64,000 nt of DNA from an uncultured Clostridia bacterium (GTDB lineage: Bacteria; Bacillota; Clostridia; TANB77; CAG-465). The DNA is taken from contig CANQPW010000004.1 of the NCBI GenBank assembly GCA_947625855.1, positions 83-64,082 on the forward strand, given 5' to 3'. This document shows, one piece after another, positions 59,001-64,000 of this stretch (the first letter of the stretch is position 1; each line of letters opens with the position of its first letter). Made by a program: the position numbers.

Positions 59001-62000
59001 CTATAAAAAAGTATATGGAGAAATTGCAGGAAGTATACTAATAGAAAAGAAATCAAAATTTTATTCATATATTTTTAATATAACTTCTGAAAATGAGGCA
59101 ATAAACTATATTAATGAATTAAAAATACAAAATAAAGAGGCAAGACATGTTGTATATATTTATTCTGTTTTAATAGATGGTAAATTAACTATTCGCTTTT
59201 CTGATGATGGTGAGCCAAGAGGTACAGGAACAAAAGCTATATATGAATTTTTAACAAAGGAAAATATAACTAATGTATGCATTGTAATTATACGATATTT
59301 TGGTGGAATATTACTTGGTGCAGGACCTCTTTTAAGGGTATATTTTAATGTTGCAAAAACAGCCATAGATTTATGTGATAAGAAAGAGGTATTAAATTAT
59401 ATTCCATATAATTTTAATACTACATATTCAAAATTTACTCAAATAAAACCTATAATAGATAAATATGCCTCTTTACAAGACGTTATAATTAATGCCATAA
59501 ACTATAACGAAGATGTATATGTTGATATACAAATAAAAGAAGAAAAATATAATGAAGTATTAGAAAAAATTAAGCAAATTATATAGGAGATGATATTATG
59601 TCTTTTTCATCAGATGTAAAAGATGAGGTTTTAAAAAATTTTTCAAAGACAAAAAATTTAAAATATAAAGAGGCGGAAAAATTTGGTGAATATTTAACTT
59701 CTGTTCCTTTAAAAAGTATATTAAATGAGGATTTTAAAGAATATTTAGATATATCAAAATTAGATGAGGAAGTTATAAAAGATATATTAAAAGGAATATA
59801 TCTTGGTAGTGGATGTATTGTAGATCCTACACAAGATTATCATTTTGAGGTAATATTTAAAAATAAAGCTTGTGCTGATTACTTTTTTAATTTGTTATCT
59901 GTACTTGATTTTACTCCAAAAATTATTAAAAGAAAAAAGCAAAATGTAGTATATTTTAAAGATTCAGAACAAATATCACTTTTCTTAAGTATTATTGGTG
60001 CAAGTAATGCTGTTTTAAAATTTGAACAAATAAGAGTTGAAAAAGAAGTTAAAAATGCGATAAATCGTGCTATAAATTGTGAGACTGCTAATATTTCAAA
60101 AACTGTTAATTCTTCTATAAAGCAAATAGACGCAATAAAAAAATTAAAAGAAAATGGAAAATTTGCCTCTTTAAGTGAGAAACTGCAATATACTGCTAAT
60201 CTAAGACTTAAGTATAGAGATGAAAGCTTAGAATTCCTTTCTGAAAAAAGTAAAGTTAGTAAATCAGGTTTAAAACATAGACTTGATAAGTTAATAGAAT
60301 TATCTAAAGAAGAATAAATAAAGTAATAAATTAGAAAATAAATCTATACAGTTATTAGTATAGATTTATTTTTATGTAAAAATGTAAAACTTGATTTACA
60401 TAAAAATATGTGATATAATATTTACATATTTTTTTATATTATAGAATTATTATTTCTATATCATTGTAAAGGAGGAAAGTGTAACTTAAAACAACAATTA
60501 CTAAAAAAGGAGGAAAATATTTTGCTTAAACTAGTAGTCAAAGAACTAGATGTTGTAAAGGTTAGTAAAATAATTGTAAAACATGATGTAGAAGCAGTTA
60601 TTTCTAACCAAAGTATTATTTTAGATGGCAATGTATCAGAGTCTTTACTTGATGAACTATGTTCAAAAATTGATGTTTTAGTAGCTCAAAATTTTCAAGA
60701 TGATAAGGGTTTAAATGTTGTTACTAATGATTTTACTTTTGATGATTTAAAATTTCCAAAGGTTAAGCGTGGTGAAGTGTATTTTTGCGAATTTGGAGTT
60801 CCTTTTGGAAGTGAAATGGGAAAGTATAGACCTGCTTTAATAGTTCAAAATGATGTTGGAAATGAACATTCAAAAACTACTATTGTTATTCCATTTACTA
60901 CATCAGAAAAAGGAAATTATCCATTTCATTATGAACTTTGTTTTGATCCTAATAATATGCTTGATTATGATGATGAATATGACTTAACTGTTAAAAGTAC
61001 TGCTTTAGCAGAACAAATAAGAGTAGTAGATAAAAGAAGACTTAGAAAATATATTGGATGCATGAGACCAGAATTCATGGAAAAAATGCAAAATATAATT
61101 GATGCAGCTCTTGGATTAAATAGGTGTTGCAATTACATTATTACAAAAAAAGAGGAAATTGTAGAGAAAAAAGAGGAAACAAAAAAAGATATTGAAGCAG
61201 AAAAAACTCCTCAAAGCCAAGAAACTGTAAATTTATTAGATTTGAATATTGTACAAATTGAACTTTTATCTTTAGTAAATATTCAAAGTCTTTTAAAAAT
61301 ATATAGATCTTCTACAAGTAATGAAATTTTAATTAAAAGAATTTTAAACTTATTTGGTTTTGACATGAATAAAAAAGGTATGGACTATCTTTTTGAAGCA
61401 ATTATGATTGCTCCTAAAAACAAACGGTATAACTTCGAGAATTTATGTCAGAATGTATATCTAAAAACTAATAAAGATAATGTTGATGAGATAAAGAGGC
61501 TTATTGTAGCTAGAGTTAAAGAAACACTTAAGTTTAAAAAATCTCCAACAATTGATTTCATTCGTTTGGTTAATACTTTTACTAACAAGAAGGAGGAAAG
61601 CGGTAGTGAAGAAGATAACATTTGATATTTCTAGCTTTAAAAATGACAATATACGGAAATTTTTAAAAGGAATTAGCAATATTTCTTGTAAGATTCAATA
61701 TGATATTTTAAATAAAGTTATTGTTGTTGAGGATGTATCTGATTCTGAAATTGATACAGTAATTGACTTGATTGAAAGTAGTAATAATATATCCAGTATA
61801 AGCATTAATAATATAGAAGAAAGTAAAGAGGCAGCACATGAAAATGCCACCACAGTAGCTGATAAAACTACCTTTTCTGAAGATAATATAGTTATTGAGA
61901 AGGTAGAGTGTAAAAGTGAATATATTAAGCAATTAGTTGAAAAATTACTAAAAACTGTATATCACGTATTATATATTAATAAAGCTACTGAACAGGAGAT

Positions 62001-64000
62001 AGGACGCCATATTATTACTGCTACAACAGAGATACATATGAAATATATTGGAAAAGATATAGTAGATGTTTCTGTTGGTGATATAGTTACTTGTAATTAT
62101 GGTATCAATCTTTCTGGAGAAGTTAGTGGTTCTGCAATAAACTCGATTGTATTAAATGTTTCAGAGAGTGGACTTGTATATTTACTTCCATTAACAACTT
62201 ACGAAAATACGTATAAAAAATACGCATCAATGATGCTTTCAAAAGATGATATAGTAAGTAATGAAATGGATAAAAGTAAAGTGTATTATGCTTTACTTAA
62301 TGGAGGCTCATATATAAATCCTAGAAGAATTAGTAACGTATGTGGAAAAGTTACACCAAATATTTTATCTAAAATTATGTATAGACTTATACAAGTATAT
62401 GATTTTGGAGGTTTTGATAGCACTAAAGAAGTGGAAAAAAAGGATGAAAAGGTATTACTTCGTTCTACGGAAAAGTCTTTATACGATACCTTTAAATCTG
62501 ATTTTGAAAAGATAGATGTGTCAAAATCACGTGAGGATAATATAAATATTTTCTTAGATAGTGTATTTCCTGATACAAAAGAAAGAAACTTTTTATTTGA
62601 TTCATTTAATGTTGTAAGTAATAAACTAACTTACGCAGATTTAATAGTTTCTTTACAACAAAAATATACTTCAAAATCAGAGAGAGAAATAAAACGGATA
62701 TTGCAAAATGAGTTTAACTCTATTATAACTAGTAAGAATCCGGAAATATTAAAAGATCATCCCAAAATTAGCATTATAACTTTAATAAAATTATTTAACA
62801 GAGTTTTAGCTTTTAGTAACCTTGATATAAGTATTTGATATTAATAGCAGAGGAGAAAATATTTTTCCTCTGCTATATTTTATAAATATAAAAAAAGAAC
62901 ATTTATTCTTTTTTATTAAAAAAGTCTTGACAAACATTTGTTTATATATTATAATAAAAGTATAAAAAGAACAAATGTTTATGAGGTGGTATTTATGATA
63001 AAATGTAAAATTAATTGCAAATTAAACGCAAAAAGGATTGTGGCAAACATATTATTAATACTTGCAATCTTTACTTTATTTAGACTTTTAGCTGTATATG
63101 AATTAGGAAAAGAGGAAGTAAAAACATATGATATTATAATTGATGATAATGATACTTTATGGAATATAGCAAGCAAAATATCTAGTGAAAAAGAATTAAA
63201 TATACAAAAAGTTATATATGATATACAAGATATAAACAATATGAATTCAAGTAATATATATAAAGGTCAAACATTATTGATACCTATATATAATTAAGAT
63301 TAAAAAAATAACATATAAAAACCTTTTAAAGCACTAAAAAGTGCTTTTTTATTTGACTGTACATTAATCTTGTGTTATAATTTGCTTATGTATTTTTTAA
63401 ACTATATTTATTATATATAGTATTTTTTTGTTCGAAAATTTTTAAATAAGGAGAAAATAATATGCAATCTGAAATTACAGTAACTAGCTATGACATTATT
63501 GATGATGTTATCATATATGATGATGGTACAATACATTGGGAAGCTAAGTTTTATTTTAATTTTGATAGAATGGAATTTAGAATATATGACTTGTATAAGG
63601 GTAGTCTTACTGAAAAGGAAATTGCAATTTTATTAGAGGAGTTTTTTATATATAACGATGTAATATGTAAATGCTATATTCCTAAGGGGCAAAAAATCTA
63701 TATTGAAGATTTATCTTTACTTGTTAATGGATATAACGTATCTAAAAATGGATATAACATACTTACATATTATATTACTGAAATTGATAATGTAGAAGAT
63801 GAAAATATAGTATTAAAGAAAGTAAGAGATACTTTTAAGTATATTATGAAAAAGACAGATATACTTGGAAAAGAAACTATTACAATATTGTTTAAAGGGA
63901 AAATAAAATACTTTTTTAAGTTTTGCTATTATTTAATGGTAGTGTTAGAGGAATATCAAAGTTTCAAGGATATTGATATAGAATATAAAGTAAAGATAAG

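Follow-up and report, generated by a model that had tools for sequence, protein, structure and literature searches.

A two-gene cassette of extended MazF-fold proteins behind a conserved leader in uncultured gut Clostridia

The window analyzed here, 64,000 nucleotides (nt) of an uncultured Clostridia bacterium (GTDB lineage Bacteria; Bacillota; Clostridia; TANB77; CAG-465; GenBank assembly GCA_947625855.1, contig CANQPW010000004.1, positions 83 to 64,082 of the forward strand), harbors a two-gene cassette on its + strand that encodes two large proteins built around the fold of the MazF/PemK toxins. The product of open reading frame 1 (ORF1; 60522..61625, 367 residues, TTG start) consists of an N-terminal domain, a MazF/PemK core and a C-terminal domain resembling the DNA-binding domain of Spo0A (Spo0A_C). 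That of ORF2 (61606..62838, 410 residues, GTG start) consists of an N-terminal domain, a helical hairpin, a MazF fold devoid of the catalytic Arg and a helical C-terminal domain. The cassette may well be a self-contained, lineage-specific and self-regulated RNase/DNA-binding module that arose from a MazF toxin gene and in which ORF2 is a modulator, a reading that we hold tentatively. Domain fusion and tandem duplication of the toxin gene would have given rise to it.

The two genes overlap by 20 nt. Each has an AGGAGG Shine-Dalgarno sequence of its own, located for ORF1 at 60508..60513, 8 nt before the TTG, and for ORF2 at 61591..61596, within the 3′ end of ORF1, an arrangement that points to translational coupling. 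Both start codons are backed by the conserved N termini of the homologues, MLQLQTK for ORF1 and MKKITFKV for ORF2, and the coordinates agree with the ribosome-binding site, GTG start and overlap that the initial annotation had assigned to ORF2. Junctions are overlapping or abutting in other loci too. The homologue survey proposed in that annotation revealed conserved pairing: in 27 of 27 loci the very next gene after an ORF1-type gene is of the ORF2 type or a remnant of one, usually with an overlap.

MazF core and flanking domains of ORF1

The core of ORF1 (60753..61121, residues 78 to 200) was matched by the Pfam profile PemK_toxin (PF02452) over residues 82 to 194, with 91.5 bits, an expectation value (E) of 5e-26 and coverage of profile positions 1 to 106 of 109. 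Its best solved relatives are Bacillus subtilis EndoA/MazF and Staphylococcus aureus MazF (E 1e-15), and a structural alignment of residues 81 to 199 with full-length EndoA gave 38% identity. Direct alignment equates R103 and T126 with R25 and T48 of the B. subtilis protein, which bears out the catalytic Arg and Thr of the initial annotation. In the main clades of ORF1 relatives the Arg is found in 34 of 34 proteins and the Thr in 32, the other two having Ser. The relatives also have a substrate-binding block, EQIRxVDKxRL, in common with EndoA (EQIRxIDKxRL), and an insertion of approximately 10 residues with a conserved NMxDYD sequence sets the family apart from it. As judged from these sequence features, ORF1 most likely works as a sequence-specific endoribonuclease of the MazF type.

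The likeness to MazF/EndoA (YdcE) thus comprises the catalytic Arg, the Thr and the substrate-binding block in the case of ORF1, and the fold in that of ORF2. Canonical MazF, in contrast, is a single-domain protein of about 115 residues, whereas the ORF1 core carries the insertion of about 10 residues and is flanked by two extra domains. In MazEF, the small product of the upstream mazE gene neutralizes MazF and binds the operator. The cassette has no mazE-like gene, and the partner of ORF1 is a 410-residue paralogue encoded downstream instead of a small MazE. We propose that the RNase has acquired a DNA-binding domain of its own, which would replace the DNA-binding antitoxin MazE.

This C-terminal domain of ORF1 (61233..61589, residues 238 to 356), presumed to bind DNA, is the most conserved part of the protein, with a mean column identity of 76%, and was modeled by AlphaFold as seven helices (residues 240 to 355) with predicted local distance difference test (pLDDT) values of 80 to 93. 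Foldseek aligned the model with 1lq1_D, from the complex of Spo0A with DNA, over 108 columns with a probability of 0.99 and a template modeling (TM) score of 0.58. Like Spo0A_C (PF08769; PDB 1lq1 and 1fc3), the domain is all-helical, and it is the DNA-bound form, 1lq1, on which it superposes. The motif G-x-x-x-x-(K/N)G-x-x-Y-L-x-x-A-I is common to both. A search of 1.84 billion representative sequences with a profile of the domain returned 93 proteins, which include two bona fide Spo0A_C proteins, P0241 (E 1.7e-4; 206 bits against PF08769) and P0244 (E 4.9e-4; 47 bits). Among the 80 profile matches that were scanned, 12 contain Spo0A_C at E ≤0.01, including P0241, P0244 and one PemK fusion (24.8 bits). 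Because of the superposition on 1lq1, the retrieval of Spo0A_C proteins and these 12 matches, we regard the domain as a divergent, Spo0A_C-like one. The kinship pointed out in the initial annotation is real but remote, and by the Pfam criterion ORF1 lies outside the family. Spo0A has a receiver domain, whereas ORF1 and ORF2 have none, Response_reg matching neither of them. We also observed that P0241 (468 residues) and P0244 (148 residues) match Spo0A_C strongly and have no PemK domain, and that P0241 combines four Spo0A_C stretches in one chain.

The N-terminal domain of ORF1 (60522..60701, residues 1 to 60) was modeled with pLDDT values of 77 to 86 and has the predicted order beta-alpha-beta-beta-alpha-beta in its first 58 residues. 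The initial annotation had described this order and likened the domain to HMA and ACT domains. The AlphaFold model agrees with the former; the HMA/ACT label rests on topology, since only the order of secondary structure elements agrees and no profile of these families matched the N-terminal domains. Pfam, NCBIfam and PHROGs all returned no match to the N-terminal domain of ORF1. MazF matches occupied the fold-search lists and masked fold neighbors of this domain. As a small ferredoxin-like domain, it could have a part in signal sensing or in assembly.

ORF2, a paralogue with an altered catalytic site

Profile and structure searches place not only the ORF1 core but also ORF2 in the MazF/PemK fold, as had been proposed. 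The MazF-fold domain of ORF2 (62059..62400, residues 152 to 265) superposes on MazF structures with Foldseek TM scores of 0.72 to 0.77 and a root mean square deviation of approximately 3 Å, at 11 to 17% identity; the mean pLDDT of ORF2 is 78. The window ORF2 itself has no Pfam match, whereas PemK_toxin matches 14 of 23 ORF2 relatives (best E 6e-6). The profiles of the ORF1 and ORF2 families gave one collinear match of 254 columns that encompasses the core and the C-terminal domain (E 4e-5). When the domains were compared separately with hhalign, core matched core with an E of 4.4e-4 and C-terminal domain matched C-terminal domain with an E of 1.1e-3 (85 columns), against 0.04 to 0.6 for mismatched pairs. 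Based on this collinear match, the MazF-fold core and the change at the Arg position, we consider ORF2 to be a paralogue of ORF1 with an altered site. The ORF2 family profile retrieved nothing meaningful from the sequences of the PDB.

The Arg position is occupied by His in 19 of 23 ORF2 proteins, by Asn in two, by Tyr in one and by Ala in one, the window protein (A177); it is never Arg. Two residues farther, 18 of the 23 have His. The Thr position is mostly retained. The initial annotation had proposed the same three-part layout as in ORF1 with loss of the Arg, and both elements stand. It had also called the fold inactivated. That term suits the window protein, while the His-x-His pattern of the family may permit some other function there, and the paired His residues could indicate an active or binding site of another kind. 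Most ORF2 relatives conserve the sequence G-G-H-V-H at the site of the MazF catalytic Arg, and the window protein is an outlier with A177 and N179.

The other parts of ORF2 resemble those of ORF1 to various degrees. The N-terminal domain (61606..61815, residues 1 to 70) has the same beta-alpha-beta-beta-alpha-beta order. Homology between the two N-terminal domains was dismissed, as it was undetectable (hhalign E 0.07) and topology alone agrees. The helical hairpin (61879..62055, residues 92 to 150, with helices at 105 to 123 and 129 to 147) is absent from ORF1 and is gained or lost together with the MazF-like domain of ORF2, the two being missing jointly in loci L014, L020 and L021. The C-terminal helical domain (62455..62817, residues 284 to 404) is weakly related to that of ORF1, and unlike the latter it gave no direct Spo0A_C match in a Pfam scan of the ORF2 family.

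No canonical antitoxin gene accompanies the pair, in agreement with the initial annotation: there is no ORF of 20 residues or more between 60318 and 60521 on the + strand, and ORF2 matched no antitoxin family in Pfam, NCBIfam or a profile search of PDB sequences. ORF2 would be co-translated with ORF1, probably forms mixed oligomers with it and would modulate, most likely restrain, both its RNase and its DNA-binding activity; it would be a modulator and not an indispensable antidote. In a bolder scheme, to which we give little credence, the cassette would be a new sort of switch resembling a toxin-antitoxin pair, with a copy of the toxin, changed at its catalytic site, as the antidote. An active MazF and a His-substituted pseudo-MazF would assemble into a hetero-oligomer in which each subunit carries a Spo0A_C-type domain and a small N-terminal domain that senses a ligand or a partner, and the complex would be at once a transcription factor, acting on the promoter of the cassette and perhaps on others, and a signal-gated endoribonuclease.

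Phage "PemK-like" proteins far longer than canonical MazF, such as A0A8S5RGV8 (266 residues) and Gp171 of Brochothrix phage A9 (206 residues), aligned with ORF2 over 190 to 310 columns in a fold search of BFVD. Phages thus also have extended MazF-fold proteins.

Promoter, operator boxes and leader

The cassette has transcription signals of its own. A sigma-70-type promoter at 60391..60419 (+ strand), as initially annotated, is composed of TTGATT, a spacer of 17 nt and TATAAT with an extended -10 TG, and it matches the consensus at 10 of 12 positions. An intrinsic terminator follows the two genes, with a stem of 15 pairs and a T-rich tail; we place it at 62844..62876, slightly displaced from the 62846..62881 given earlier. 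Conservation of the promoter together with the leader is new and goes beyond what the initial annotation had described.

Five TGTAAA/TTTACA hexamers, at 60375, 60383, 60395, 60421 and 60465 (60375..60470, + strand), lie around and inside the promoter and represent candidate operator boxes. Nowhere else in the 64 kb does a 120-nt stretch hold five or more such hexamers (expected number, 0.31). They recur in the 200 nt upstream of the 27 homologous loci, where we counted 52 against 12.9 expected. A TTTACATAA box adjoins the -10 box in all clades: after it in most, before it in others, and on both sides in the window. The 0A box recognized by Spo0A, TGTCGAA, differs from the candidate TGTAAA box.

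In an alignment of the leaders (60360-60521 of the window, 5840-6003 of locus L001 and the corresponding region of 25 further loci), approximately 100 to 170 nt before ORF1 are conserved between clades with a protein identity of only about 30 to 45%. TG-n-TATAAT is a conserved element when 26 loci are aligned. It is followed in order by the TTTACATAA box, a hairpin, an A-rich block that ends with GGAG and a tiny ORF, and lastly the real Shine-Dalgarno sequence, some 40 to 70 nt past the GGAG, which is invariant in 26 of 26 aligned leaders. In the window, this upstream Shine-Dalgarno-like site is an AGGAGG with a GTG-TAA start-stop mini-ORF (60470..60484, + strand), which may act as a decoy or a stabilizer. 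A conserved leader peptide was rejected, as the mini-ORFs vary in length (from about 1 to 20 codons, by eye), frame and peptide.

The leader hairpin of the window, TATAGAA/TTCTATA (60440..60460, + strand; RNAfold, -4.6 kcal/mol, z score -1.7), occupies the position of a covarying hairpin in the homologues. When each sequence was folded by itself, a hairpin was predicted at the same position in 25 of 26 loci, with differing stem sequences. In a covariance-model alignment of 19 matches, 85% of the cells were paired, compared with 39 to 54% in slid controls. Nine of the 10 pairs of the hairpin showed compensatory changes, and there were 41 doubly changed cells versus 16 ± 4 after shuffling. The 19 matches are 16 main-clade loci on the + strand, locus L013 (E 0.78) and two minus-strand matches to the palindromic hairpin; being fitted to the structure, the alignment leans toward the hairpin. 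The diverged leader of the window was not matched by the model at E ≤1. RNAalifold found no structure in MAFFT alignments of the leaders, because the stems are out of register in them. An outer stem around the hairpin, UUUGU/ACAAA, suggested by RNAfold, was dropped as its substitutions are uncompensated.

The leader is reminiscent of the mRNA stabilizers of Bacillus known as STAB-SD or 5′ stem-loops, for instance in the cryIIIA leader. As with STAB-SD, the hairpin is 5′-proximal and is followed by a strong Shine-Dalgarno sequence that starts no real gene. Unlike in STAB-SD, the primary sequence AACAAATGTCTATAAAAAGGAG-GTGATAT is conserved far beyond what a stabilizer needs, and it overlaps the repeated TGTAA boxes. 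No Rfam family matched the leader. A type III RNA antitoxin of the ToxIN kind was also rejected: the sole repeat is an 8-nt unit present twice (60374-60389), and Rfam gave no match.

Of 29 loci, at least 21 have a GTG or TTG start codon for ORF1 and only two have ATG; in the other six, ORF1 was read from its second codon. These starts suggest selection for weak translation initiation. In the reading that we favor, the expression of the cassette would be held down in three ways, by the weak GTG/TTG start codon, by presumed autorepression through the TGTAAA/TTTACA boxes that overlap the promoter, and by the conserved structured leader with its decoy Shine-Dalgarno sequence.

In two loci a sigma-70-family gene is found directly upstream of the cassette, on the same strand in L089 (3077-3727) and divergent in L014 (279-1520), the latter gene having a long C-terminal extension. 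Both placements may be coincidence.

Distribution, natural variants and possible function

More than 200 full-length relatives of ORF1 were collected after clustering at 90% identity. The family is small, with approximately 93 clusters at 50% identity among the 1.84 billion representatives. In a collection of genomes at the species level, only metagenome-assembled genomes of uncultured gut Clostridia/Bacillota, from rabbit, Hadza human, ruminant and mouse samples, had the full architecture. The pair stands by itself in about 27 species-level loci, and the flanking genes are otherwise unrelated between loci (whiA, rpoB, dnaX-recR, nrdD or thrS). The N- and C-terminal domains are almost always kept, the exceptions being a C-truncated ORF2 in L017 and the remnant in L009 described below.

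The variable context of this tight, overlapping unit is what one would expect of a true two-component toxin-antitoxin module, in which ORF1 would be a growth-arresting toxin and ORF2 its obligatory antitoxin, acting through a heterodimer of MazF and inactive pseudo-MazF, with the fused C-terminal domains binding the operator in MazE's stead. Such a module would also account for the catalytic Arg of ORF1 and its lack in ORF2, for the want of another antitoxin gene and for the private promoter and terminator, and the helical hairpin of ORF2 could mimic the groove-binding helix of MazE. Several naturally occurring variants argue against it. In locus L009, ORF1 is intact and ORF2 has collapsed to a remnant of 64 residues with N- and C-terminal sequence (9034-9228), and the same was found in L089, L091 and L092. 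The sequence downstream of the L009 genes is closely repeated in at least one independent assembly, L092, with 4 mismatches in 291 nt; L091 has more differences (24 in 376), and L090 is substantially different (93 in 295). A type II module would be expected never to keep the toxin without its antidote, whereas L009 and L089-L092 keep ORF1 with an ORF2 remnant. L014 similarly retains an ORF1 with both Arg and Thr although its ORF2 (3011-3796) lacks the hairpin and the MazF fold and is reduced to N- and C-terminal domains, as are those of L020 and L021. Furthermore, the toxin-like gene precedes its partner; unlike labile antitoxins, the two proteins are large and the model of ORF2 is well folded; and the cassette shows no plasmid or mobile-element hallmarks and has the GC content of its neighbors. 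We therefore consider an obligatory toxin-antitoxin pair unlikely. ORF2 does not appear to be an indispensable antidote. The initial proposal that ORF1 would be neutralized by an inactivated paralogue or by its N-terminal domain is partly contradicted by the L009 lineage, L014 and the clade L020-L022.

Other observations weigh against the modulated RNase/DNA-binding module that we favor. In the clade L020-L022, Glu, Glu and Lys replace the Arg of ORF1 while the pair and its leader are kept, and in L019 (7986-8675) and L041 (1065-1561) ORF1 lacks the MazF core altogether and is made of the N- and C-terminal domains. Because of this clade without the Arg and these two loci without the core, RNase catalysis is not the invariant function of the pair; the RNase core of ORF1 appears to be usually, yet not always, under selection. 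The AlphaFold model of the core is poor (pLDDT 30 to 54), probably owing to a shallow alignment and to a fold that exists as an obligate dimer, and its fold-search scores consequently rest mainly on sequence. TACAT, the cleavage motif of the B. subtilis enzyme, shows only a mild depletion in the operons (37 occurrences versus 54.7 expected, in loci that are non-independent). With regard to DNA binding, Pfam Spo0A_C scored 15.2 bits with the window ORF1 and 17.6 with the isolated domain, below the cutoff of 25, the match to ORF1 covering only the first 47 profile positions. The C-terminal domain profile retrieved no Spo0A from the PDB sequences, and hhalign of this profile against the single B. 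subtilis Spo0A C-terminal sequence (checked, and identical to 1lq1) aligned 18 columns only, with an E of 0.096. The hexamer boxes could be conserved as RNA and not as DNA, and hetero-oligomerization of ORF1 and ORF2 is a conjecture.

The dispensability of either MazF domain, the clade without Arg and the near-constant retention of the N- and C-terminal domains would be well explained if the paralogues were a domesticated regulator of transcription or translation without toxin function, binding DNA or RNA and using the MazF fold for dimerization or nucleic acid recognition only. The conservation of catalytic residues in most ORF1 proteins would then reflect RNA binding or a mild processing role. 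That the C-terminal domain is the most conserved part, that the promoter boxes are conserved, and that the genes are single copy, chromosomal and restricted to one lineage also fit. Nevertheless, the invariant Arg and nearly invariant Thr of the main clades and the EQIRxVDKxRL block shared with EndoA argue for continued selection on catalysis, and no target genes are known. We thus regard a purely regulatory role as improbable. The variants, i.e., loss of ORF2, of either MazF domain or of the Arg, may represent an evolutionary series from a toxin module to a regulator.

A regulatory MazF has a precedent in MazF-mx of Myxococcus xanthus, a solo toxin controlled by the transcription factor MrpC. 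Like MazF-mx, ORF1 is a MazF without MazE, tied to a DNA-binding regulator and apparently serving host regulation rather than plasmid addiction. The regulator of MazF-mx, in contrast, is a separate protein encoded elsewhere, whereas ORF1 has its DNA-binding domain fused and a paralogous partner in the operon.

Upstream of the cassette lie the housekeeping genes tig, clpP and clpX, a UPF0029/YigZ gene and a short whiA, and downstream a LysM gene with its own promoter. The GC content of the cassette, 0.25 to 0.28, equals that of its surroundings. Horizontal transfer was set aside, as the GC content is not anomalous and mobile genes were found near one locus only (L001).

MazF-family toxins and fused toxin-antitoxin proteins are known defense effectors. 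An anti-phage abortive-infection system of the fused type would follow CapRel-like logic, with ORF1 inhibited in cis by its N- or C-terminal domain until a phage cue releases it, and with ORF2 as sensor or decoy. As in fused toxin-antitoxin proteins such as CapRel and EzeT, a toxin and a putative regulatory or neutralizing domain share one polypeptide, with no separate small antitoxin; however, those proteins have other toxin folds and no paralogous second subunit, and cis-inhibition in ORF1 is only putative. Cis-inhibition would fit with the tolerance of ORF1 without ORF2, and the defense role known for such toxins in general, the variable genomic context and the resemblance of long phage PemK-like proteins (180 to 266 residues) to ORF2 in the fold search speak in its favor. 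The defense models of PADLOC-DB 2.0, on the other hand, gave a chance-level match with ORF1 (E 0.036) and none with ORF2. The neighbors are housekeeping genes (tig, clpP, clpX and whiA; rpoB; dnaX-recR) and not defense islands, the family is narrow, and its C-terminal domain evolves slowly, whereas sensors engaged in an arms race usually diversify. An anti-phage function is therefore very unlikely.

We recorded three further features of the surroundings. The whiA gene directly upstream (59598-60317) encodes only 239 residues, with LAGLIDADG_WhiA and HTH_WhiA matches but no match for an N-terminal domain; L001 likewise has a short whiA (279 residues), at a distance of about 3 kb from the cassette there. 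Downstream, the small LysM-domain gene has a perfect 12/12 sigma-70 consensus promoter (62927-62955) and its own terminator (63328-63347). Farther upstream, two large overlapping ORFs of 1862 and 685 residues (47737-53325 and 53322-55379) jointly carry glucoamylase-like, GH94 supersandwich and GH94 catalytic domains and look like a giant protein of the glucan phosphorylase/synthase type that is split in two or frameshifted.

The initial annotation had not recognized the architecture as a described system, and our searches led to the same result. No curated family of Pfam or NCBIfam covers ORF2 or the N- and C-terminal domains, PHROGs matched the MazF core only and neither the N- nor the C-terminal domain, and PADLOC had no corresponding model. 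We found no paper describing the combination of PemK with Spo0A_C or the ORF1/ORF2 pair. Makarova et al. (2009; PMC2701414) list MazF genes that adjoin genes of the MazF/CcdB family and discuss solo MazF, and the ORF1/ORF2 layout is not described there.

Since the family is small and has been found in uncultured gut Clostridia only, its general importance is uncertain. The textbook MazF is a single-domain RNase under the control of a small, labile antitoxin. The ORF1/ORF2 family may show another solution, in which one protein unites DNA binding with the RNase, its partner is a catalytically altered duplicate, and a conserved structured leader precedes the unit. Should ORF1 be active, the family would offer a natural example of a transcription factor that contains a sequence-specific RNase, or else of a toxin neutralized by its own paralogue. 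If true, this would also extend the Spo0A DNA-binding fold to a use outside sporulation.

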